Source: a virus
Direction: 5' to 3' (one strand)
IMG/VR virus record: IMGVR_UViG_3300038313_000260
Length of the DNA stretch: 44,538 nt
This document shows, piece by piece, positions 3,355 through 23,008 of the stretch (positions within the stretch are counted from its first letter, which is position 1; every line of letters begins with the position of its first letter). Position numbers and translations under genes: made by a program. The notes under the pieces were generated by a model. The model had not been told where the DNA came from. It did no database searches and was given only the letters and a program-made list of their open reading frames with translations.

Positions 3355-3903
3355 TTGAGTTTGCCTAAATATATAGTTAACTTTGATGAACTTACAGATG
3401 ATCTAAAAAATAGTCTATTAGATTCAATAGATGCTAATATAAAAACTAACTATCCTGAAATAAATGCAAGTAATATATATGGTTTACTGAATCAATTGGA
3501 AAGTTTATTGCCAGATGTAAAATATAAAAAATTGGGGCAAAAGATAAACGACCTTATATGTAAAAATATTGAGGGTGATCAAAAGGTTAAGGGTATACTA
3601 TTAGATATTCCAGCAATAAAAAATGATTATAAGGAACAATTTAAATTTGATTATGATGTACTTATTACAGGATTACATTTTAACCAAACAGGATGGAAAA
3701 AAGATGATAGATATAGTTTAGAGGTTAATAGAACAAAAATAATAGATAATGCAACTATAAAAGAAATAGGTGAGCATAAGTATTTTAATACTTATTATCC
3801 CGTTATAAGGGATACTCCTATTTCTTTTATTTTACATAATTTGAGCGGAAATAGTAGACAAACAATTATAGATTTAGAATATATAAAAGGGAATATGCTA
3901 TAG
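3355..3903 (+). CDS. Tail-module protein, paralog B of the tandem pair (TTG start preferred over tracked GTG 3346)
   Basis: TTG at 3355 follows the GAAGGTG RBS and the upstream stop (3351-3353). It makes the N-terminus align residue for residue with paralog A (M-S-L-P-K-Y-I-V-N-F-D-E-L). Confidence 0.55.
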   Translation: MSLPKYIVNFDELTDDLKNSLLDSIDANIKTNYPEINASNIYGLLNQLESLLPDVKYKKLGQKINDLICKNIEGDQKVKGILLDIPAIKNDYKEQFKFDYDVLITGLHFNQTGWKKDDRYSLEVNRTKIIDNATIKEIGEHKYFNTYYPVIRDTPISFILHNLSGNSRQTIIDLEYIKGNML

Positions 3904-3953: not shown

Positions 3954-5192
3954 ATGGCGGAAGAAAACTTTTATTATTCAGAAGGAAGTTGCCAAGTAAA
4001 AGATTTAGTTAACACATTAGTAAAAGAAATTACACAAAATGCTGGAATTTATAAATGGGATTTAGTTTACCCTGATAGTATAGATAAAATAGGATCATCA
4101 GGGGGAGAAAGCACAATAAATCTTATAACAGATGATTCCGTAACAAGTAAGGTAGACACTGTATTTACAGTAGGCTCTCAAGATGATAAGTGCATTATAA
4201 AGGCTAATACAACTTATGGGAAAGAATTTTATTTGAAAATAGATAGGGGAAAAGCAGATTTAAGCAAAGAAGAAAAAAAGGCATTAATTGACTTTGATAA
4301 GTTGCATACCTATTATAATTACAATGGAAATAGTCTTAGTAGAACAGATGCGCAAGTATTAGAAGTAATGGCTGGAGTTTCTGATGAATGGAGCAAAAGT
4401 GGAGATTATACCACTTATGTTAGCGCAAAGACTAAAAGTAATTCTATAAACAATATAAGATTGCAGATATCTGATAAATTAAATAAAGATAACACTGATT
4501 TAGATATACCCAGTAATATACAAAAAGATTATAACTACAGATTGGCTTGGTATAGAAAATTACAACCAGAAATTAAAGATTTTTTACCAATTCAATATTG
4601 GATAAATGTAACTAAAGATAGTATAAATTTAGTATTACGAGGAGATCCATCAGCAGATGTTGAACCCTATGAAAACTATCTTACATCTTATGCATATATA
4701 GGAGCATTAAAACCAGTAGAAGATTCAGCTTTTACAGATGATAAATATAATTTTGGTATAACTGTATCTTCTGATATAGAGCCTAATTATGCTAAGCCTT
4801 ACGGGGAAAGAACTGCAACAGGAGTAACAGATGTATGTATGATAGCTAATAAAATAGGCATGCCATATCAACCCCATTATCCTGCTTTTTATACTGCAAA
4901 TCCATTTATAGACAAGTGTAATGTGGAGGGCTCAAGATGGAATCATAAAAAACATCAGTTTTCAGATATAACACTTGTACATCCAGTAGATATGGAACGT
5001 GGAAAAATGGAAAATGTGTTAATTGGTGATGCTAGTTCTATTTATGATACAGATAAATTAGCTTACAAAAAAGATACCGAGGAAGAGGAATATTATAAGA
5101 AATTTAAAATTACTGCACCTTTTAATTTTCTTAATAATAGTGCTAATATAAACTATTGCATAGCAATAAGATGCCCAAAAACATCAGAATAA
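3954..5192 (+). CDS. Tail/baseplate structural protein (412 aa), function unassigned
   Basis: AGGAGG RBS. Position in the tail operon. Confidence 0.55.
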   Translation: MAEENFYYSEGSCQVKDLVNTLVKEITQNAGIYKWDLVYPDSIDKIGSSGGESTINLITDDSVTSKVDTVFTVGSQDDKCIIKANTTYGKEFYLKIDRGKADLSKEEKKALIDFDKLHTYYNYNGNSLSRTDAQVLEVMAGVSDEWSKSGDYTTYVSAKTKSNSINNIRLQISDKLNKDNTDLDIPSNIQKDYNYRLAWYRKLQPEIKDFLPIQYWINVTKDSINLVLRGDPSADVEPYENYLTSYAYIGALKPVEDSAFTDDKYNFGITVSSDIEPNYAKPYGERTATGVTDVCMIANKIGMPYQPHYPAFYTANPFIDKCNVEGSRWNHKKHQFSDITLVHPVDMERGKMENVLIGDASSIYDTDKLAYKKDTEEEEYYKKFKITAPFNFLNNSANINYCIAIRCPKTSE

Positions 5193-13208: not shown

Positions 13209-14372
13209 TTATATAAATAAGCTATTTAATTTTTCAACCGCTGAAATTTTTTCTTTAGGCATTACATGAGTATATATATTAGCTGTGATTGAAATGTCAG
13301 AATGTCCTAGAAGGGTTTGAACAGTTTTAAGAGGGACATTTGCTTCAAATAATTTCGTGGCATAAGTATGACGCAAGGCATGAAATTTCTTGTGAGGTAT
13401 TTTAGCTTTTTTTAATAGATTTTTATAACTCATGAATAAATTTTTAGTGCTTAAAGGATTTCCAGTTGCAGTAGCGAAAATAAAATTATTATCCAAATAG
13501 GAAGGACCTGCTTTTATTTTTTCTAATTTTTGTTCTTTCTCATGTTCTTTTAAAACAGGAATTAAGGTTGAAGGAATAGGAACAATCCTATTAGATGTTT
13601 TGCTTTTAGGAGCCTGGGTTATAACTTCATGTCTTGAAGAACCATCAGATTCTATTATTTTTACACGTTTTATAGTTTTTTCAACCTTAACTTCCTTTAA
13701 GTCTGTGTCAATATCACTCCATTTTAATGCTAGGAGTTCTCCTTGCCTTAAACCAGTACCCAAAGCCATAAGTATTAAGCATTTCAATCTGTGCCCATTT
13801 AAAGCTTGTTTTAAAGTGTCTATTTCAGCATCAGTAAATATTGCAATTTCTGTGTCTTTAACATCTTTTTTACCTGGAATAATTATTTTTTTACCAGAAC
13901 AAGGATTCTTTAAAATATATCCTTCATCAACTGCGTAATTTAAAAATTGATTTAATAATTTATTTAGGCTTTTTATTGAACTACTGCTTTTACCATTATT
14001 GTAAAGATTATTATAGTATCTTTGAACTTGAAGGGATTTTAAGTCAGATAGTTTTAAGCTATATAATTCACTTTCTTTTATATAATTTCTGTATATTCCT
14101 TCGTAGCGTTCAAAAGAAGTTGGTTTAACTTTTATTTTCACAACTTCAAATAACCAAGTGTGCATTAAATTCCCTAATATTGTATCTTTATAATTTATAT
14201 TAAGACCATTTTTTATATTATTTATATATTCATCACGTTTATCCTCAGCTTCTGTTTTACTTTTACCATAGAATTCTTTCCTAATTAGCTTACCATTAGC
14301 ATCTCTCCCTATAGAGGTTGTTACTCTAAAATAATCATTACCGTTTTTGGTGTAGTTAGTCTTACGCGCCAT
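13209..14372 (-). CDS. int: Tyrosine integrase with N-terminal arm-type DNA-binding domain
   Basis: C-terminus HALRHTYATKL...LLGHSDISITANIYTHV (R-H-R-Y catalytic set). N-terminus MARKTNYTKNGNDYFRV...GK..RKEFYGKSKTEAE is typical of the AP2-like arm-binding domain. Adjacent to the attP candidate. Confidence 0.92.
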   Translation of the reverse strand: MARKTNYTKNGNDYFRVTTSIGRDANGKLIRKEFYGKSKTEAEDKRDEYINNIKNGLNINYKDTILGNLMHTWLFEVVKIKVKPTSFERYEGIYRNYIKESELYSLKLSDLKSLQVQRYYNNLYNNGKSSSSIKSLNKLLNQFLNYAVDEGYILKNPCSGKKIIIPGKKDVKDTEIAIFTDAEIDTLKQALNGHRLKCLILMALGTGLRQGELLALKWSDIDTDLKEVKVEKTIKRVKIIESDGSSRHEVITQAPKSKTSNRIVPIPSTLIPVLKEHEKEQKLEKIKAGPSYLDNNFIFATATGNPLSTKNLFMSYKNLLKKAKIPHKKFHALRHTYATKLFEANVPLKTVQTLLGHSDISITANIYTHVMPKEKISAVEKLNSLFI

Positions 14373-15822: not shown

Positions 15823-16287
15823 TTAAAACTTTTTTATAATCCCAAAATGGGGTTCGAACATTACTATGTAATTATCTATTTCAAAGTAGGCGCCATACTT
15901 TTCTCTATAATGCTGAATTGCTTCCTCTAAAAATTCCTCTGTAACTTCTAGGTATTCAGCTAATTCACATCTATTTCTGGCACCACTATTATAGGCATTT
16001 ACTATGTCAATAATACCTACTAATTTTTCATAACCCCAGTTGCGAGCTTTCTTCTCCTGTTTTACATTTTCAATTTTGTTTTGGTTGGTAATATTACCTA
16101 CAGTTTTATTATAATGCCCTAATTCTTCCGCTAGAATAACGTGTTTTTGTTTATCAAGTAAATTTCTATTTATTAATACTTTATTATTAGAGTAATAGCC
16201 ACATTCCTCACAATCCCCAAAATCTATCTCTTTAATTTTTATCTTATGTTTTTCAGCTTCAACTAATAAACTTTCGTATTTTGTCAT
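15823..16287 (-). CDS. ImmA/IrrE-like (M78-type) peptidase homolog with variant EELGH motif
   Basis: VILAEELGHY sits where the family has HExxH. Size is about 150 aa. Lies directly downstream of the XRE repressor in the same operon, the ImmR/ImmA arrangement. Confidence 0.7.
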   Translation of the reverse strand: MTKYESLLVEAEKHKIKIKEIDFGDCEECGYYSNNKVLINRNLLDKQKHVILAEELGHYNKTVGNITNQNKIENVKQEKKARNWGYEKLVGIIDIVNAYNSGARNRCELAEYLEVTEEFLEEAIQHYREKYGAYFEIDNYIVMFEPHFGIIKKF

Positions 16288-16304: not shown

Positions 16305-16733
16305 TTATTCCTCATCCATCTCTTTAAAAATCTCTTTTGCTTTATTTAATCTTTCTTTAGATTTTTCAGGGGATAATCCATCATCATGTGCTGCTAAGGT
16401 ATAAATTTCATTTTCTTCTTGTGTATATTTATTTATTTCAGTTAATTCAGATACTCTTTTGATAGCTTCATCTTTACCGGTTTCATTTAGTTTATTGAAG
16501 TTTGATATTAATGTTGTTTCTTTTTTATCTTTAATTTCAATGTCATCATCAAAATCGTCAAGTGTGCACCCTAATACTTTTGATAAAGCTTTTAGCGTTT
16601 CTAATTTAGGGTCTTTGGTAGTTCTATTTAATATTTTGTTTAAAGTTCCCAATGGCACTCCAGACATTTCGGAAAGTTCCTTTGATGTAAGATTCTTTTT
16701 CTTTTTTAATTCTTCTATAATTTCTAGTCCCAT
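16305..16733 (-). CDS. CI-like XRE-family repressor
   Basis: N-terminal HTH LTSKELSEMSGVPLGTLNKILNRTT. Divergent from the Cro-like gene. AGGGAG RBS. Confidence 0.85.
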   Translation of the reverse strand: MGLEIIEELKKKKNLTSKELSEMSGVPLGTLNKILNRTTKDPKLETLKALSKVLGCTLDDFDDDIEIKDKKETTLISNFNKLNETGKDEAIKRVSELTEINKYTQEENEIYTLAAHDDGLSPEKSKERLNKAKEIFKEMDEE

Positions 16734-16754: not shown

Positions 16755-16880
16755 ATTATATAACGGTAATATTTTACCGTCAACTATTATTTTACCGTTA
16801 AATATAAAAATATTTTAAAAAAGGCATTGACTTTTACCGTTGAAGGGTATATTATATGATTAAACAAACCGTTAATGGTA
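16755..16880. promoter_or_regulatory. Lysis-lysogeny switch: divergent sigma-A promoters with ACGGTAA/TTACCGT operator sites
   Basis: Leftward promoter TTGACG-17-TATAAT (plus-strand coordinates 16778-16783 and 16755-16760), with the palindrome ACGGTAA-N4-TTACCGT (16763-16780) in its spacer. Rightward promoter TTGACT (16827-16832)-17-TATTAT (16850-16855), with TTACCGT (16834-16840) in its spacer. Further half-sites at 16792-16798 and 16868-16879. Confidence 0.7.
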
Positions 16881-16895
16881 AATGGAGATGATAAA

Positions 16896-17111
16896 ATGTA
16901 CCGCGAACTATTAGGAGAAATAGTAAAAAAGGGCCTAAATAGAAAGAAATTAGCTGAAAAAATTGGGGTTTCTGAAAAAACACTAAGAAATAAGTTAAAT
17001 GGGAAAACAGATTTTACATGGAGTGAAGTAAAAAAAATAAGAGATATCGTTGCCCCAGAGTATACTTTAGAAAAATTATTTGAAAAATCAGATACCAAAA
17101 ATCTAAATTAA
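16896..17111 (+). CDS. Cro-like HTH protein (71 aa; ATG 16896 preferred)
   Basis: GGAG RBS before ATG 16896. HTH LNRKKLAEKIGVSEKTLRNKLNGK. First gene of the rightward operon. Confidence 0.7.
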   Translation: MYRELLGEIVKKGLNRKKLAEKIGVSEKTLRNKLNGKTDFTWSEVKKIRDIVAPEYTLEKLFEKSDTKNLN

Positions 17112-17125
17112 AAGGAGGAACTTAA

Positions 17126-17243: not shown

Positions 17244-18005
17244 ATGAACAACTTACAGATTTTTAATAATCAACAACTTATACCATTAAAAGAAAATGAA
17301 ACTGGTGAGGTAATAATAAGTGGTAGGGATTTGCATGAGTTTTTGGGAATAAAAACCGAATATAGAAAGTGGTTTCCACGAATGACTGATTATGGTTTTA
17401 TTGAAAATCAAGATTATATAAGGGTGTCCCAAAAATGTCCTACCCCTGGAGGAGAACAGGAAATTGTAGACCATGCGATTAAATTAGACATGGCAAAAGA
17501 AATAGCAATGATACAGAGAAATGGAAAAGGTAAGCAGGCAAGACAATATTTTATAGCAGTAGAAAAAGCATGGAACAGTCCTGAAATGATTATGAAGAGA
17601 GCTTTGGAGTTTGCAAATAAGAAAGTTATTGAATTGCAAGATAAAATCCAAATAGATAAGCCAAAGGTCATATTTGCAGATAGTGTTACAGCTTCAAGAA
17701 CTTCAATATTGGTCGGAGAGCTTGCAAAGATTATTAAGCAAAATGGATATGATATAGGGCAGAACAGGCTATTTCAATGGCTCAGGGATAATGGATATCT
17801 GATAAGTCGTAAAGGTACTGATTATAATATGCCAACACAGAAATCTATGGAACTGGGACTGTTTGAAATCAAGGAGACATCTATCACACATTCAGATGGA
17901 CACATAAGTGTAAATAAAACACCAAAAATTACTGGTAAAGGGCAGCAGTACTTCATTAATAAATTTATTGAGAATGAAGCAAAAGAAGAAACAGCTTGTA
18001 ATTAA
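17244..18005 (+). CDS. Antirepressor 1 (AntA-like N-terminal domain plus KilAC/ANT C-terminal domain)
   Basis: SGRDLHEFLGIKTEYRKWFPRMTDYGFIENQDY (AntA-type) and LVGELAKIIKQNGYDIGQNRLFQWLRDNGYL (KilAC-type). Confidence 0.8.
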   Translation: MNNLQIFNNQQLIPLKENETGEVIISGRDLHEFLGIKTEYRKWFPRMTDYGFIENQDYIRVSQKCPTPGGEQEIVDHAIKLDMAKEIAMIQRNGKGKQARQYFIAVEKAWNSPEMIMKRALEFANKKVIELQDKIQIDKPKVIFADSVTASRTSILVGELAKIIKQNGYDIGQNRLFQWLRDNGYLISRKGTDYNMPTQKSMELGLFEIKETSITHSDGHISVNKTPKITGKGQQYFINKFIENEAKEETACN

Positions 18006-18022
18006 AAATTAAATTAAAAGGA
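17966..18022 (+). repeat. 57-bp direct repeat, copy 1 (3' end of ant1 plus downstream RBS region)
   Basis: Identical to 19425-19481. Encodes IENEAKEETACN, the stop codon and TAAAAATTAAATTAAAAGGA. Confidence 0.9.
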
Positions 18023-18033
18023 AGAGTGATTAA

Positions 18034-18216
18034 ATGAGCAATTTAGAAAAAAATCAAAACAAAAAAGAAGTTGCCCAGGAACCATTAATAAAAAAATATA
18101 CATTAACAATACCAGATGGACTATTGAAAGAAATTAAGGGAAAGGCTAATCAACAAGGGATGTCAGTTAACGCATACATCTTATTATCAATTAGCCAAAC
18201 GTTAAAAGAAAAGTGA
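18034..18216 (+). CDS. Ribbon-helix-helix (Arc/CopG-like) small protein
   Basis: YTLTIPDGLLKEIKGKANQQGMSVNAYILLSI matches the beta-strand/helix/helix RHH pattern. Confidence 0.55.
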   Translation: MSNLEKNQNKKEVAQEPLIKKYTLTIPDGLLKEIKGKANQQGMSVNAYILLSISQTLKEK

Positions 18217-18218
18217 TA

Positions 18219-18365
18219 TTATTTTAAATTCTTTTGTGTATATTCTTTTAAAACCATTTCAATTTCTTTATTTACGGAACGGCCGTTGTTTTGAGCTATA
18301 ATTTTCAATTTGTCTAATAACTCTTTTGGTATACGTAATGTAAATTTAGGTAATTGAGAAGTCAT
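18219..18365 (-). CDS. Arc/Mnt-like RHH repressor (48 aa, not in the ORF track)
   Basis: MTSQLPKFTLRIPKELLDKLKIIAQNNGRSVNKEIEMVLKEY is the classic Arc-family pattern (F-L-R-P-EL...A..N-RS-N-EI). AAGGAGG RBS. Divergent from the arc-like/ant pair. Confidence 0.7.
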   Translation of the reverse strand: MTSQLPKFTLRIPKELLDKLKIIAQNNGRSVNKEIEMVLKEYTQKNLK

Positions 18366-18488
18366 TAAAAAACCTCCTTTTAAAAGTCGTCATAATGACA
18401 TCACTATTATAGCATAGAAAACATTTTAAAAAAAGTATTGACGGCATAATGACGGCATGGTAACATAATGATAAGAGGTGACGGCAAA
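18366..18488. promoter_or_regulatory. Divergent control region of the immI-like module with repeated operator motifs
   Basis: CATAATGA(C) occurs three times (18391-18399 inside the palindrome GTCATAATGAC, 18445-18453, 18464-18471). TGACGGCA occurs three times (18439, 18450, 18479). Rightward promoter TTGACG-17-TAACAT. Leftward extended -10 TGCTATAAT (plus-strand coordinates 18406-18414). Confidence 0.6.
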
Positions 18489-18641
18489 GTGAATTTAAAG
18501 CAAAGACTTACAATACGAATGCCAAGTGAACTAAATACAAAACTGTCAATTAGGGCACAAAAGATAGGAATAAGTAAAAATAGCTTAGTTTTACAAATAT
18601 TATGGGAAAAGGTACAAAAGGAGGATATAAAAAGTGTGTAA
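18489..18641 (+). CDS. Arc-like RHH repressor (50 aa, GTG start, not in the ORF track)
   Basis: NLKQRLTIRMPSELNTKLSIRAQKIGISKNSLVLQILWE fits the RHH pattern. GAGGTG RBS 8 nt upstream. Its 3' end overlaps the start of the Bro-type antirepressor. Confidence 0.65.
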   Translation: MNLKQRLTIRMPSELNTKLSIRAQKIGISKNSLVLQILWEKVQKEDIKSV

Positions 18642-19464
18642 TGATTTACAGGTTTTTAAGAATGAACAGTTCGGAGAAGTAAGAGCTTTGATACTCAAAA
18701 ACGAACCTTGGTTTGTAGGAAAAGACGTGGCTAAATGCTTAGGGTATAAAGATACCAAGGATGCTATAAGACAACATATAGATAATGAAGATAAAACTAT
18801 AATTCAAAAGGGGCAAATTACCACCTTAGAAATTCCAAATAGAGGATTAACAATTATAAATGAAAGCGGGTTATATAGCTTAGTATTAAGTTCAAAATTA
18901 CCAACAGCAAAGAGGTTCAAAAGATGGGTTACATCAGAAGTGCTGCCACAAATAAGAATACATGGAGCATTTATGACAGATGATACTTTGGAAAAGGTAT
19001 TAACAAACCCTGATTTTCTTATAAAATTGGCAACAGAACTTAAGGAGGAAAAAGAACAACGCAAGGCACTTGAATTACAAAATAAGCAGAAAGAGCAAAT
19101 CATAGGAGAGCTGAAACCTAGAGCAGACTATACAGATAGAATTTTAAAGAACAAAGGGCTTGTAACAATAACACAAATTGCTAAAGATTATGGAATGACT
19201 GGAATAGAGTTAAATAGGTTATTGCATGACTTAAAAGTGCAATATAAACAAAGTAATCAATGGCTTTTATATAAAGAGCATAGTGGTAAGGGATACACAC
19301 ATTCCGAAACTGTAGATATTGTCAGAAATGATGGTAAACCAGATATAAAAATGAACACTAAGTGGACACAAAAAGGTAGATTATTTTTATATAACTTACT
19401 TAGGAAGAATGGAATATCACCAACTATTGAGAATGAAGCAAAAGAAGAAACAGCTTGTAATTAA
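18634..19464 (+). CDS. Antirepressor 2 (Bro-N domain plus ANT-like C-terminal domain)
   Basis: FGEVRALILKNEPWFVGKDVAKCLGYKDTKDAIRQHIDNEDK is a Bro-N signature. GGAGGA RBS before the GTG. Same C-terminal tail IENEAKEETACN as antirepressor 1. Confidence 0.8.
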   Translation: MCNDLQVFKNEQFGEVRALILKNEPWFVGKDVAKCLGYKDTKDAIRQHIDNEDKTIIQKGQITTLEIPNRGLTIINESGLYSLVLSSKLPTAKRFKRWVTSEVLPQIRIHGAFMTDDTLEKVLTNPDFLIKLATELKEEKEQRKALELQNKQKEQIIGELKPRADYTDRILKNKGLVTITQIAKDYGMTGIELNRLLHDLKVQYKQSNQWLLYKEHSGKGYTHSETVDIVRNDGKPDIKMNTKWTQKGRLFLYNLLRKNGISPTIENEAKEETACN

Positions 19465-19481
19465 AAATTAAATTAAAAGGA
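19425..19481 (+). repeat. 57-bp direct repeat, copy 2 (3' end of ant2)
   Basis: Identical to 17966-18022. Confidence 0.9.
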
Positions 19482-19491
19482 GGAAATATAG

Positions 19492-19749
19492 ATGGATATT
19501 ACAGCAGAACAGCTAAAAGACATTATAAGGGATGCCGTTAAAGAAGCGGCACCTGAACCCCAAAAAGCAACTATGACAATACAAGAGTGTGCTAAATACA
19601 GCGGCATAGGAAAAGACAAGCTCATGGAATTAGCGCATAGTACAAATTCAGATTTTCCAGCTTTTAGAGTAGGTAAAAAGTTTCTAATTAATAAAGAGTT
19701 ACTAGATAATTGGCTAGAAAATATAAGCAAAGAAAAGAAAACACTATAA
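19492..19749 (+). CDS. xis: Excisionase-type HTH DNA-binding protein
   Basis: MTIQECAKYSGIGKDKLMELA...FPAFRVGKKFLINKELLDNWL is typical of the MerR-like excisionase family. Confidence 0.65.
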   Translation: MDITAEQLKDIIRDAVKEAAPEPQKATMTIQECAKYSGIGKDKLMELAHSTNSDFPAFRVGKKFLINKELLDNWLENISKEKKTL

Positions 19750-19944: not shown

Positions 19945-20037
19945 TTAACTAAGGCTGAATAGCCTTTTATAAAAAACTGTTTTATCAATCTAGGGATATA
20001 CTCGCCCAATATATGTATATGCGAAAGGAGTGAGAAT

Positions 20038-21276: not shown

Positions 21277-22197
21277 ATGGATAAGCTTAAATGGCTCCAA
21301 GAAAGACAAAAAGGTATTGGCGGAAGTGATGTTGGAGCAATAATGGGAGTTAATAAGTGGAAAACACCGTTCGAAATTTATTTAGAAAAGACAGAGGAAA
21401 TACAAGAAGTTAACGAGCAAAGCGAATCAGCATACTGGGGAGATCAGTTCGAAGAAGTAGTCGCTAAAGAATTTGAAAAGAGAACAGGTAAAAAAGTACG
21501 AAGGGATAGAAGACATTTTCAGCATCCATCATATCCATTTATGGTTGCAAATATTGACAGGAGAGTAGTGGGAGAAAATGCAGTATTGGAATGTAAAACA
21601 GCTAACCAATTCTTAGCTAAAGAATGGGAAAGTGAAGAAATACCAGCAAGCTATTTATTACAAGTACAACACTATCTAGAAGTTACAGGAGCGGAAAAGG
21701 GTTATATAGCTGTTTTAATAGGTGGGCAGAGATTTGTTTGGAAAGAGATACCGAGGGATGACGAACTAATAAGGATTATTGTTCAAATTGAAAAAGATTT
21801 TTGGATGGAACATGTTGAGAAGAGAATACCACCAGCTTTGGATGGAAGTAGCGCTGCAGAGAAATATCTTTCAGAAAAATATAAGGGATCAAATTCAGAG
21901 CTAAGTATTGATTTAAAGTCGGAATATACAGAAAAAATAGACAAGCTTTTAGAGCTAAAGAACACAATTAAGCAATTAGAGAACCAGGCAAAAGAAATTG
22001 AGAATAACATAAAAAATGAACTTGGAGAAGCTGAAATAGGCTATACTCCACAGTTTAAAGTTAGTTGGAAGGCAGTTAGCTCTAATAGAATAGACAGTAA
22101 ACTTCTAAAAGAAAAGTACCCAAATGTTTATAAAAAAGTATGTAAAGAAAGTATGTCAAGAAGATTTACTATTAAAAACTTGAAGGAGGAAAATTAA
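21277..22197 (+). CDS. YqaJ-type (lambda Exo-like) recombination exonuclease
   Basis: WLQERQKGIGGSDVGAIMGVNKWKTPFEIY is the hallmark YqaJ N-terminus. Directly upstream of RecT. Confidence 0.85.
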   Translation: MDKLKWLQERQKGIGGSDVGAIMGVNKWKTPFEIYLEKTEEIQEVNEQSESAYWGDQFEEVVAKEFEKRTGKKVRRDRRHFQHPSYPFMVANIDRRVVGENAVLECKTANQFLAKEWESEEIPASYLLQVQHYLEVTGAEKGYIAVLIGGQRFVWKEIPRDDELIRIIVQIEKDFWMEHVEKRIPPALDGSSAAEKYLSEKYKGSNSELSIDLKSEYTEKIDKLLELKNTIKQLENQAKEIENNIKNELGEAEIGYTPQFKVSWKAVSSNRIDSKLLKEKYPNVYKKVCKESMSRRFTIKNLKEEN

Positions 22198-22198
22198 C

Positions 22199-23008
22199 AT
22201 GACAACAGCAAGTGAATTAAAGAATCAACTAGCAACTAGAAAGGAAACAGGAGTAGGGAGTGCTGGTAATACAGTAAAGGGGTTATTAGAAAGCCCAGCA
22301 ATTAAAAAAAGATTTGAAGAAGTTTTAAAACAGAGAGCACCACAATATATGAGTTCTATAGTTAATCTAGTTAACGGAGATGCAAATCTTAAAAAGTGTG
22401 ACCAGATGAGTGTAATAGCAAGTTGTATGGTTGCTGCTACTTTGGATCTTCCAGTTGATAAAAATTTAGGATATGCATGGGTAGTACCTTATGGCAATAA
22501 AGCACAATTCCAGCTTGGTTATAAAGGATATGTACAACTAGCACTTAGAACAGGGCAGTATAAATCTATAAATGTAATAGAAATACATGAAGGTGAATTA
22601 ATTGAATGGAATCCTCTCACGGAAGAATTAAGGATTGATTTTGAGAAAAAAAAGTCAGATGCAATTATAGGTTATGCAGGATATTTTGAATTAATAAATG
22701 GCTTTAGAAAATCAACCTATTGGACTAAAGAACAAATAACCAAACATAAAAATAAATTTAGTAAATCAGACTTTGGTTGGAAAAAAGACTTTGATGCTAT
22801 GGCTAAAAAAACAGTGCTTAGGAATATGTTAAGCAAATGGGGAATTTTAAGCATTGAAATGCAAAACGCTTACACAGCAGACCAAGAAACTATAAAAAGT
22901 GAAGTGCTAGAAACCGGGAACATTAAAGAGAATGTTGAGTATGTAGAGGCAGACTTTGATGTTGATTTTGAGGGTACCCCATTTGAAGAAGGTGTAACTA
23001 ATGAGTAA
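22199..23008 (+). CDS. recT: RecT-family single-strand annealing protein
   Basis: Size, position after the exonuclease, and conserved GY.W.VPYG..A.FQLGYKG...LA core. Confidence 0.85.
   Translation: MTTASELKNQLATRKETGVGSAGNTVKGLLESPAIKKRFEEVLKQRAPQYMSSIVNLVNGDANLKKCDQMSVIASCMVAATLDLPVDKNLGYAWVVPYGNKAQFQLGYKGYVQLALRTGQYKSINVIEIHEGELIEWNPLTEELRIDFEKKKSDAIIGYAGYFELINGFRKSTYWTKEQITKHKNKFSKSDFGWKKDFDAMAKKTVLRNMLSKWGILSIEMQNAYTADQETIKSEVLETGNIKENVEYVEADFDVDFEGTPFEEGVTNE

Follow-up and report, generated by a model that had tools for sequence, protein, structure and literature searches.

A candidate second repressor/operator switch of three ribbon-helix-helix genes in the early region of clostridial temperate phages

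Background

How clostridial phages, those of C. difficile among them, control lysogeny is poorly understood, and what many of their putative repressors and antirepressors do is unknown or a matter of speculation (PMC11172241). Here, we present a comparative sequence analysis of positions 18,023 to 19,481 of a 44,538-nucleotide stretch of viral DNA (IMG/VR record IMGVR_UViG_3300038313_000260, the whole stretch being hereafter the window), which belongs to a temperate Clostridium phage with a GC content of ~30% that was found in about 20–30 fermentation-metagenome contigs of 38–46 kb. An earlier note on this DNA had read the interval as a second immunity region of the type of Salmonella phage P22 immI, carried on a cassette bounded by a 57-bp direct repeat. 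Our results point, on balance, to a different reading: the interval is probably the core of an early-region module that is conserved among clostridial temperate phages, is built around three small ribbon-helix-helix (RHH) genes and would act as a second repressor/operator switch in series with the primary CI/Cro switch.

C. difficile phages provide some of the closest known systems. phiC2 (gp52–gp55), phiCDKH01 (gp20–gp24) and also phiMMP03 and CDKM9 share with the window the same gene order, orientation, and promoter and box layout. In phiC2 (NC_009231, our locus L246), the succession of gp52 (ANT), an unannotated RHH gene, gp53, gp54 and gp55 (Bro-N) reproduces the arrangement of the window, the unannotated gene being an open reading frame (ORF) of 45 amino acids (aa) between gp52 and gp53 (locus positions 3680–3817, minus strand). 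By contrast, the first two operator-like boxes of phiC2 and phiCDKH01 read TGACGCAA, and their proteins are about 52% identical to those of the window. Annotation of the small genes in these records goes no further than 'Arc-like repressor' or hypothetical, the sole form under which published C. difficile phage genomes show the module. Our search of the literature found no description of an RHH-trio module, and P. larvae phage papers mention duplicated Arc-like genes only. A second divergent 'Arc-like repressor' pair, gp60/gp61, lies further along the early region of phiC2.

Results

Three paralogous RHH genes between two antirepressor-type genes

The module follows the order ant1, RHH3, a convergent Arc-family RHH gene on the minus strand, the control region, a rightward RHH gene, ant2 and a xis-like gene. 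Its genes up to ant2 are the following, the two divergent RHH genes being designated by their positional equivalents in P22:

17244–18005, plus strand: Ant1, AntA + ANT/KilAC (Pfam ANT 3e-38, AntA 1.7e-25)
18034–18216, plus strand: RHH3, the third RHH gene (weak Pfam matches: CopG 9e-4; Arc 0.005, 17.1 bits against a cutoff of 20.4)
18219–18365, minus strand: Arc-family RHH gene at the 'mnt position', 48 aa (Pfam Arc 8e-12, 45 bits, cutoff 20.4)
18489–18641, plus strand: RHH gene at the 'arc position', 50 aa (Pfam HicB 6e-6; Arc 2.4e-4, 21.3 bits, cutoff 20.4)
18634–19464, plus strand: Ant2, Bro-N + ANT/KilAC, GTG start (Bro-N PF02498 1e-28, 100 bits; ANT PF03374 2e-35, 122 bits)

All ORFs named by the earlier note were recovered at the positions it gave, including the third RHH gene at 18034, the minus-strand gene with its Arc-family assignment, and the Bro-N gene, which overlaps the 3′ end of the arc-position gene by 8 nt. 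The arc-position gene, absent from public gene calls for this phage, starts at GTG 18489, as indicated by its ribosome-binding site (RBS) AAGAGGTG (18473–18480) and by homologues starting at the same aligned position; the alternative ATG at 18468 falls within the rightward promoter.

By sequence, all three small proteins belong to the Arc/CopG RHH superfamily. The best solved-structure match of the minus-strand protein was P22 Arc (E = 7e-8; P22 Mnt, 5.6e-5), with 54–58% identity to P22-like Arc over residues 3–35 (tblastn), and it is 100% identical to a protein for which NCBI gives the name 'Arc-like DNA binding domain protein [Clostridium liquoris]'. The arc-position protein matched the P22 Mnt N-domain (E = 0.0045). 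The sequence affinities are therefore reversed relative to the positional names: the mnt-position protein is nearest to Arc, and the arc-position protein resembles Mnt most; both are Arc-sized and without the Mnt C-terminal domain. RHH3 matched the PHROG 'Arc-like repressor' (1.5e-6), and profile–profile comparison (hhalign) linked it to the mnt-position family (97%) and the arc-position family (94%), all three families being interlinked with probabilities of 93–97%. The ratio of nonsynonymous to synonymous substitution rates (dN/dS) was about 0.06–0.3 wherever dS was measurable, with 0.06–0.13 for the minus-strand gene where dS was unsaturated and 0.09–0.25 for RHH3; for the arc-position gene, dN was 0.13–0.24 and dS near or past saturation. 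Because dN lies far below dS between lineages, the three RHH genes are real, and these profile and substitution comparisons showed them to be paralogous and under purifying selection.

Conservation of the module among clostridial phages and other elements

DNA homology between the window and all close relatives was limited to 18088–18634 (~550 bp). Judged from the alignments, it is this stretch that forms the conserved unit, both ant genes and the opening 18 codons of RHH3 being mosaic additions. The conserved core of RHH3 spans 18088–18213, its N-terminal 18 codons being unique to the window phage. The earlier note had treated the third RHH gene as an extra beside the divergent pair, which did not hold: RHH3 goes with the pair in all close relatives and the majority of distant ones, and without exception it converges on, or overlaps, the minus-strand gene. 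Trio orientation is constant across all relatives carrying the whole trio, and the convergent stops vary, across the relatives that we examined, from a gap of 2 nt to an overlap of ~74 nt. Between the convergent RHH3 and minus-strand genes, neither a terminator nor a stable hairpin was found.

The order ant1-RHH3-mnt-arc-ant2 recurs across several clostridial phage lineages, and the arc-position/ant order, including an overlap of roughly 8 nt, is conserved in four of them (window, phiC2, phiCDKH01 and C. butyricum). A C. butyricum prophage, for instance, reads cro, ORF6N/ORF6C, HTH_17, Bro-N, RHH3, opposite-strand Arc, small RHH, Bro-N/ORF6C and HTH_17. P. sordellii prophage contigs carry the same Arc protein, with ORF6N, Phage_pRha, AntA/ANT or Bro-N/ORF6C after the rightward RHH gene, and a Clostridium metagenome-assembled genome and an IMG/VR phage carry an ORF6C protein downstream. 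Overall, the gene after the arc-position RHH gene was antirepressor-type in 6/8 close contexts, with swapped domains. In C. baratii and in elements with serine-recombinase, Rep, ParA and ParB genes, no antirepressor is present and the genes behind the trio are small early genes and replication genes, and in 18 more distant loci (Oscillospiraceae, Lachnospiraceae, Ructibacterium and others) the trio usually stands directly after cro and is followed by small non-antirepressor genes.

Ant2 matched PHROG 130 'anti-repressor Ant' (1.9e-103), and its C-terminal half is 84–88% identical at the DNA level to the C. tetani phage 'KilAC antirepressor'. In C. tetani phages, cro is followed directly by a single ant, without RHH genes. 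For the comparison of one-ant and two-ant phages proposed by the earlier note, the analysis covered C. tetani phages, with one ant and no RHH genes, and phiC2, phiCDKH01, C. butyricum and P. sordellii, with ant-trio-ant.

Promoters and phased operator-like boxes of the control region

The intergenic control region (18366–18488) is 123 bp long and contains the following elements:

18438–18466, plus strand: predicted rightward promoter, TTGACG-17-TAACAT with an upstream TG
18414 to 18406, minus strand: predicted leftward promoter, extended −10 TGcTATAAT, read by eye
18439–18446 and 18450–18457, plus strand: boxes 1 and 2, both TGACGGCA, 11 bp apart, over the −35 and the spacer
18479–18486, plus strand: box 3, TGACGGCA, between the RBS (18473–18480) and the GTG start
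18384–18402: putative leftward operator, comprising the palindrome GTCATAATGAC and read on the minus strand as degenerate boxes TGATGTCA-tta-TGACGACT

The 11-bp-phased operator-like boxes overlap the rightward −35 and spacer, the rightward RBS and start, and the leftward transcript start. The three TGACGGCA copies and the palindrome at 18389–18399 (a perfect 5+1+5) that the earlier note had described were confirmed, and its two divergent promoters stood as predicted elements. TGACGGCA occurs 4 times in the whole 44.5-kb window against 0.13 expected, 3 of these copies lying within 48 bp here, and the tandem TGACGGCA-N3-TGACGGCA occurs once, even allowing three mismatches. The other repeat that had been proposed, CATAATGA, was indeed clustered in this region (18391, 18445 and 18464), but was neither enriched window-wide (6 copies vs 3.1 expected) nor conserved in relatives.

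Alignment of 10 relatives revealed a conserved order of elements: the leftward RBS, rTCAwwwTGAy at the leftward transcript start, the extended −10 and an A-rich tract, then TTGACGGC (the −35, corresponding to box 1), ATGACGGC (box 2), TAATAT, and AGGAGGTGACGGC (RBS and box 3). A TGnTATAAT-like leftward element is kept in all 10, and rTCAwwwTGAy is the core of the putative leftward operator, under which the predicted start of leftward transcription falls. The operator unit kept in relatives is TGACGGC(A), with a phase of 11 bp; box positions are conserved across the same 10 relatives, and GGAGGTGACGGC at box 3 is conserved in all close relatives. Box letters vary between lineages, the positions being usually retained: TGACGCAA boxes occupy two or four positions in L154, phiC2 and phiCDKH01 (handles of the form L154 are ours), with a fresh TGACGCAA pair at the box-3 position of L154 and GTGACGGCAA across the start codon at that of phiC2, and GATATC-type boxes are found in L153, L166 and L186.

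RHH dimers that bind cooperatively, side by side along one DNA face, as in the Arc tetramer, are expected to be spaced by one helical turn. Counting identical 6-mers within 25 bp of each other in 28 non-identical control regions, we found pairs exactly 11 bp apart 76 times, vs 1.4 in shuffles. Sites of the CI type (TTACCGTyrA) were absent from 18366–18488; therefore, the rightward promoter would need a repressor of its own. The likeness of TGACGGCA to the CI operator/−35 sequence TTGACGGTA was rejected as coincidence, relatives with other CI operators keeping TGACGGC boxes. Matching boxes to proteins by correlating beta-strand residues with box sequences gave no clean answer.

An IMG/VR scan for TGACGGCAN3TGACGGCA returned mostly unrelated matches, L094 alone being a related module and L024 and L108 carrying similar promoter-like sites. 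About ten IMG/VR contigs with 36–40% GC (L005, L031, L044, L048, L063, L072, L074, L076, L092) share GTCATGACGGCATCATGACGGCATCAGATTTCATCACGGCAG, which holds 11-bp-phased TGACGGCA boxes in an unrelated context. One relative, Clostridium aromativorans (NZ_JAJJPB010000035, L150), keeps the promoter and three boxes with the arc-position gene missing and an HTH_17-like gene instead, and is a natural variant without the feedback gene.

The 57-bp direct repeat and the history of the region

The repeat copies are as follows:

17966–18022, plus strand: copy 1, the Ant tail IENEAKEETACN and stop codon, then the RBS linker
19425–19481, plus strand: copy 2, with the tail native to the Ant2 lineage

The two copies are identical at 57/57 positions (59/60 in the extended alignment) and, as the earlier note had described, correspond to the last 12 codons and RBS region of the antirepressor genes, sharing the tail IENEAKEETACN with its stop and the linker AAATTAAAAGGAGG. 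Immediately beyond the repeat, the ant genes align at about 50%, which is the chance level. The C. tetani phage Ant ends in TIEQEAEREVACN and a stop codon, indicating that the IENEAKEETACN tail is native to the Ant2 lineage. The Ant1 orthologue phiC2 gp52 ends ...YFINKF-KKNNQISMLG, where the window has IENEAKEETACN after INKF, which places the replacement of the Ant1 tail precisely at the repeat's left edge. The RBS linker AAATTAAAAGGAGG occurs 3 times against 0.15 expected (17105–17118, 18011–18024 and 19470–19483), all within the early operon, where the copies precede the 34-aa ORF, RHH3 and the xis-like gene; a comparable linker of 30–41 nt follows gp52, gp55 and gp58 in phiC2.

Repeats of other kinds accompany the module elsewhere. 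They include a 722-bp repeat of 88% identity in the two ant genes of phiCDKH01, a 25-nt repeat at the ends of two ORF6C genes in C. butyricum and, in the plasmid-like elements L126–L133, an exact 52–53-bp direct repeat flanking a bare RHH trio (~3797–3850 and ~4417–4470, oriented coordinates). The latter fills the whole intergenic spacer, the flanking genes varying between elements; an IMG/VR scan for the 52-bp repeat of the L127 family gave no match. Flanking repeats are absent in L094, L144, L145 and L146 and, where present, fall outside the conserved block 18088–18634.

The 57-bp repeat therefore stands as a genuine recombination footprint and not, as the earlier note had supposed, as the boundary of a newly acquired 1.46-kb cassette, because ant-trio-ant recurs and the conserved block is 18088–18634. 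Repeats are frequent around this region without marking fixed borders of the module, and they fit recombination between paralogous ant genes or linkers in a mosaic region rather than transposon-like insertion, which we rejected, the unit containing no recombinase and the repeats not lying at the conserved-unit borders in every copy. The repeat could mediate cassette deletion or circular excision, especially as the phage encodes RecT. The easy cassette loss anticipated by the earlier note was not borne out: ~20 metagenome contigs of the phage all keep the cassette, and neither exact look-ups of the Ant1 and Xis proteins nor repeat-core scans of IMG/VR and the metagenome collection recovered an empty-site or deletion variant. 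Among the contigs examined, L120 has an unrelated gene behind an Ant1 with the same tail, and in L141 an Ant2 variant precedes the repeat and xis. A 690-bp contig of coverage 1.8 (L125, ENA ERZ724038 NODE_85121) runs from the 3′ end of Ant2 through the 57-bp repeat into RHH3 and the minus-strand gene. This junction could equally represent an excised circle or tandem duplication, or an assembly chimera, since the 57-bp repeat exceeds the k-mer of 55 that we assume for the assembler, and it was not used as evidence.

Genomic context and the primary CI/Cro switch

The surroundings of the module include the following features:

13209–14372, minus strand: integrase, lysogeny module
15823–16287, minus strand: ImmA-type metallopeptidase, just downstream of the XRE repressor (Pfam Peptidase_M78 8e-7)
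16305–16733, minus strand: XRE/CI-like primary repressor (Pfam HTH_3 8.8e-13)
16757–16881: primary switch region, with five TTACCGTyrA operator-like sites and divergent promoters
16875–17111, plus strand: Cro-position DUF739/HTH gene (Pfam DUF739 2.7e-6), first gene of the early rightward operon
19492–19749, plus strand: HTH_17/Tn916-Xis-like gene (Pfam Tn916-Xis 2.8e-8)

The Cro-position gene is 71 aa long in public gene calls and is separated from Ant1 by the 34-aa ORF; RHH3 is the last gene of the early transcript ahead of the convergent minus-strand gene. The five TTACCGTyrA sites include one in the −35/−10 spacer of the rightward Cro promoter and another close to the cro RBS, a layout that resembles that of the boxes at the second promoter. 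In addition, the A-rich tract and −35 of the Cro promoter (16807–16831) and of the second promoter (18418–18442) are identical at 22/25 positions (AAAAyATTTTAAAAAAAGkATTGAC), which may reflect a shared UP element or a common origin. The HTH_17/Xis-like gene probably shares a rightward operon with ant2, and a GC hairpin, AAGGCTGAATAGCCTT, at 19951–19966 after a 57-aa ORF may mark the end of the operon run from the second promoter. YqaJ-type exonuclease and RecT genes lie at 21277–23008, and these recombination functions could use homologies as short as the 57-bp repeat. No Rfam family matched anywhere in the window.

Discussion

A proposed second switch in series with CI/Cro

According to the reading that we favour, the minus-strand Arc-family protein would be made in the lysogen, since its gene is co-oriented with that of CI (as well as with the ImmA and integrase genes), and would serve as the maintenance repressor of the second promoter. 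Two of its dimers, one helical turn apart on boxes 1 and 2, would shut the strong rightward promoter, silencing ant2 and the downstream early genes, and the protein would regulate its own synthesis through the weaker degenerate boxes at its transcript start and leader. The first rightward RHH protein would exert an Arc/Cro-like feedback on the same boxes. Where essential early genes lie behind the second promoter, they must be derepressed on induction, and RHH3 and convergent transcription are relay candidates: RHH3, the last gene of the CI-controlled transcript, would signal to the second switch that CI is gone, through antisense transcription across the maintenance gene and/or by competing or forming mixed dimers with the maintenance repressor. 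Ant2 (Bro-N/KilAC) would then act on a repressor.

Several points weigh against this scheme. Which RHH protein binds which box, and in which state, we infer from orientation and analogy only, and the RHH3 relay is conjectural. Box 3 lies over the RBS, and translation signals may account for part of its conservation. The 'antirepressor' status of Bro-N/KilAC proteins is mostly a matter of annotation. Furthermore, the control of ant appears, from the gene content of relatives, to be a lineage-specific use and not the defining function of the module, because the downstream genes of distant relatives are not antirepressors. In phiCDKH01, the promoter that precedes the first antirepressor gene is turned off by the XRE repressor, and both antirepressor genes were treated as driven from this XRE-repressed promoter (PMC11172241). 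That paper, the only experimental one on a module-bearing phage, dealt with the XRE repressor alone.

Alternative explanations

An extension of the favoured scheme, which we hold as tentative and somewhat doubtful, makes the trio a portable, self-contained relay switch in which CI-controlled RHH3 disables the maintenance RHH protein and opens a CI-independent promoter, the ~550-bp unit, whether accompanied by an antirepressor gene or not, spreading among phages and plasmid-like elements by homologous recombination at RBS-linker or ant-tail repeats and perhaps travelling as an excised circle. Unlikely, and a shade more so than this relay, is a generic second CI/Cro-like bistable switch of reversed polarity, in which the rightward RHH protein represses the leftward gene in a Cro-like manner, the leftward RHH protein acts transiently, for example in establishment, and Ant2 is one of many early genes. 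Replication/partition or small early genes do lie downstream in L127-type elements, C. baratii and distant modules, C. aromativorans retains the promoter and boxes without the rightward RHH gene, and the similar beta-strand residues of all three proteins may allow them to bind the same boxes. However, the leftward gene points the same way as the lysogeny genes and is served by a conserved extended −10 of its own, and the strongest boxes lie over the rightward and not the leftward promoter.

The strict P22 immI analogue, acquired as a cassette, appears more improbable still. Here, nothing but the divergent pair and ant2 would count: the Mnt-like protein would serve in maintenance and the Arc-like protein in shut-off, and Ant2 would inactivate CI, with RHH3 a passenger and the repeats marking a recent 1.46-kb insertion between ant1 and xis. 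The homology of the RHH proteins to Arc and Mnt, the arc-ant overlap, the exact 57-bp repeat with an abrupt identity drop outside it, and the C. tetani phages with cro, one ant and no RHH genes are all in keeping with such an analogue. These are set against the conservation of RHH3 with the pair in every close relative and most distant ones, a common block of 18088–18634 that is not the repeat-bounded unit, the recurrence of ant-trio-ant in phiC2, phiCDKH01, C. butyricum and P. sordellii, an Ant2 unrelated to P22 Ant, the missing Mnt C-domain, and searches that returned no empty-site or deletion variant. Finally, it is highly improbable that the RHH proteins take no part in ant2 control and are orphans of an antitoxin-like or partition (ParG/omega-like) type. 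Weak Pfam matches to CopG_antitoxin, HicB and FitA-like families, PHROG matches labelled 'partition protein ATPase', and ParA and ParB downstream in L127-type elements hint at such functions, but in the window no toxin-family ORF lies beside any of the three genes, nor does ParA or a centromere-like array, grounds on which we rejected the toxin-antitoxin and partition readings; moreover, the boxes sit exactly on promoter elements and the trio is found in ordinary integrating prophages.

Implications

The analysis defines a compact, conserved three-gene module with base-level predictions (two promoters, three box positions and an 11-bp phasing), and proposes a role for RHH3, a gene unannotated in phiC2. 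If the favoured scheme is true, induction in these phages runs through two serial switches, which bears on prophage induction, on antirepressor cross-talk between co-resident prophages and on the engineering of strictly lytic C. difficile phages, and the module would give synthetic biology in Firmicutes a portable switch of small size built on RHH proteins.

Comparison with known regulatory systems

The resemblance to P22 immI drawn by the earlier note holds in part, for the divergent Arc/Mnt-superfamily RHH genes, the repeat-rich promoter region and the operon with an antirepressor-type gene, and fails for the Ant family, the Mnt C-domain, the position and the operators. As in immI, divergent small genes of the Pfam Arc family flank a short control region, the rightward RHH gene heads what its gene order suggests is an operon with an antirepressor-type gene, and over residues 3–35 the minus-strand protein and P22 Arc share about 55% identity. 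By contrast, P22 Ant consists of P22_AR_N and P22_AR_C (PF10547, PF10548), whereas Ant1 and Ant2 carry AntA or Bro-N with ANT only and have no similarity to P22 Ant (BLASTP E>1). P22 Mnt is an 83-aa protein with Repressor_Mnt (PF11423), whereas the mnt-position protein of the window has 48 aa and an Arc domain only. The unit also differs in having a third RHH gene as a component, putative operators made of 8-bp direct boxes 11 bp apart, unlike P22 operators, and overlapping arc and ant genes, which therefore leave no intercistronic room for a sar-type RNA. Its location differs as well, 1.3–1.5 kb downstream of cro in the early operon, whereas P22 immI lies beside the tailspike gene 9, among late genes.

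The arrangement recalls lambda CI/Cro in its divergent small repressors with operators between back-to-back promoters, one repressor gene lying with the lysogeny genes and the other heading the lytic operon. Unlike lambda CI/Cro, its proteins have the RHH rather than the helix-turn-helix (HTH) fold, a third paralogue is present, and it lies downstream of, and adds to, a genuine XRE/ImmA-type CI/Cro switch. Among RHH regulators, Arc binds as a tetramer on a 21-bp operator, and omega, ParG and CopG bind repeated short boxes. Although the box sequences of the window are unrelated to Arc, Mnt and omega sites and their binding is predicted, the module shares with these tandem-site regulators short boxes placed about one helical turn apart.

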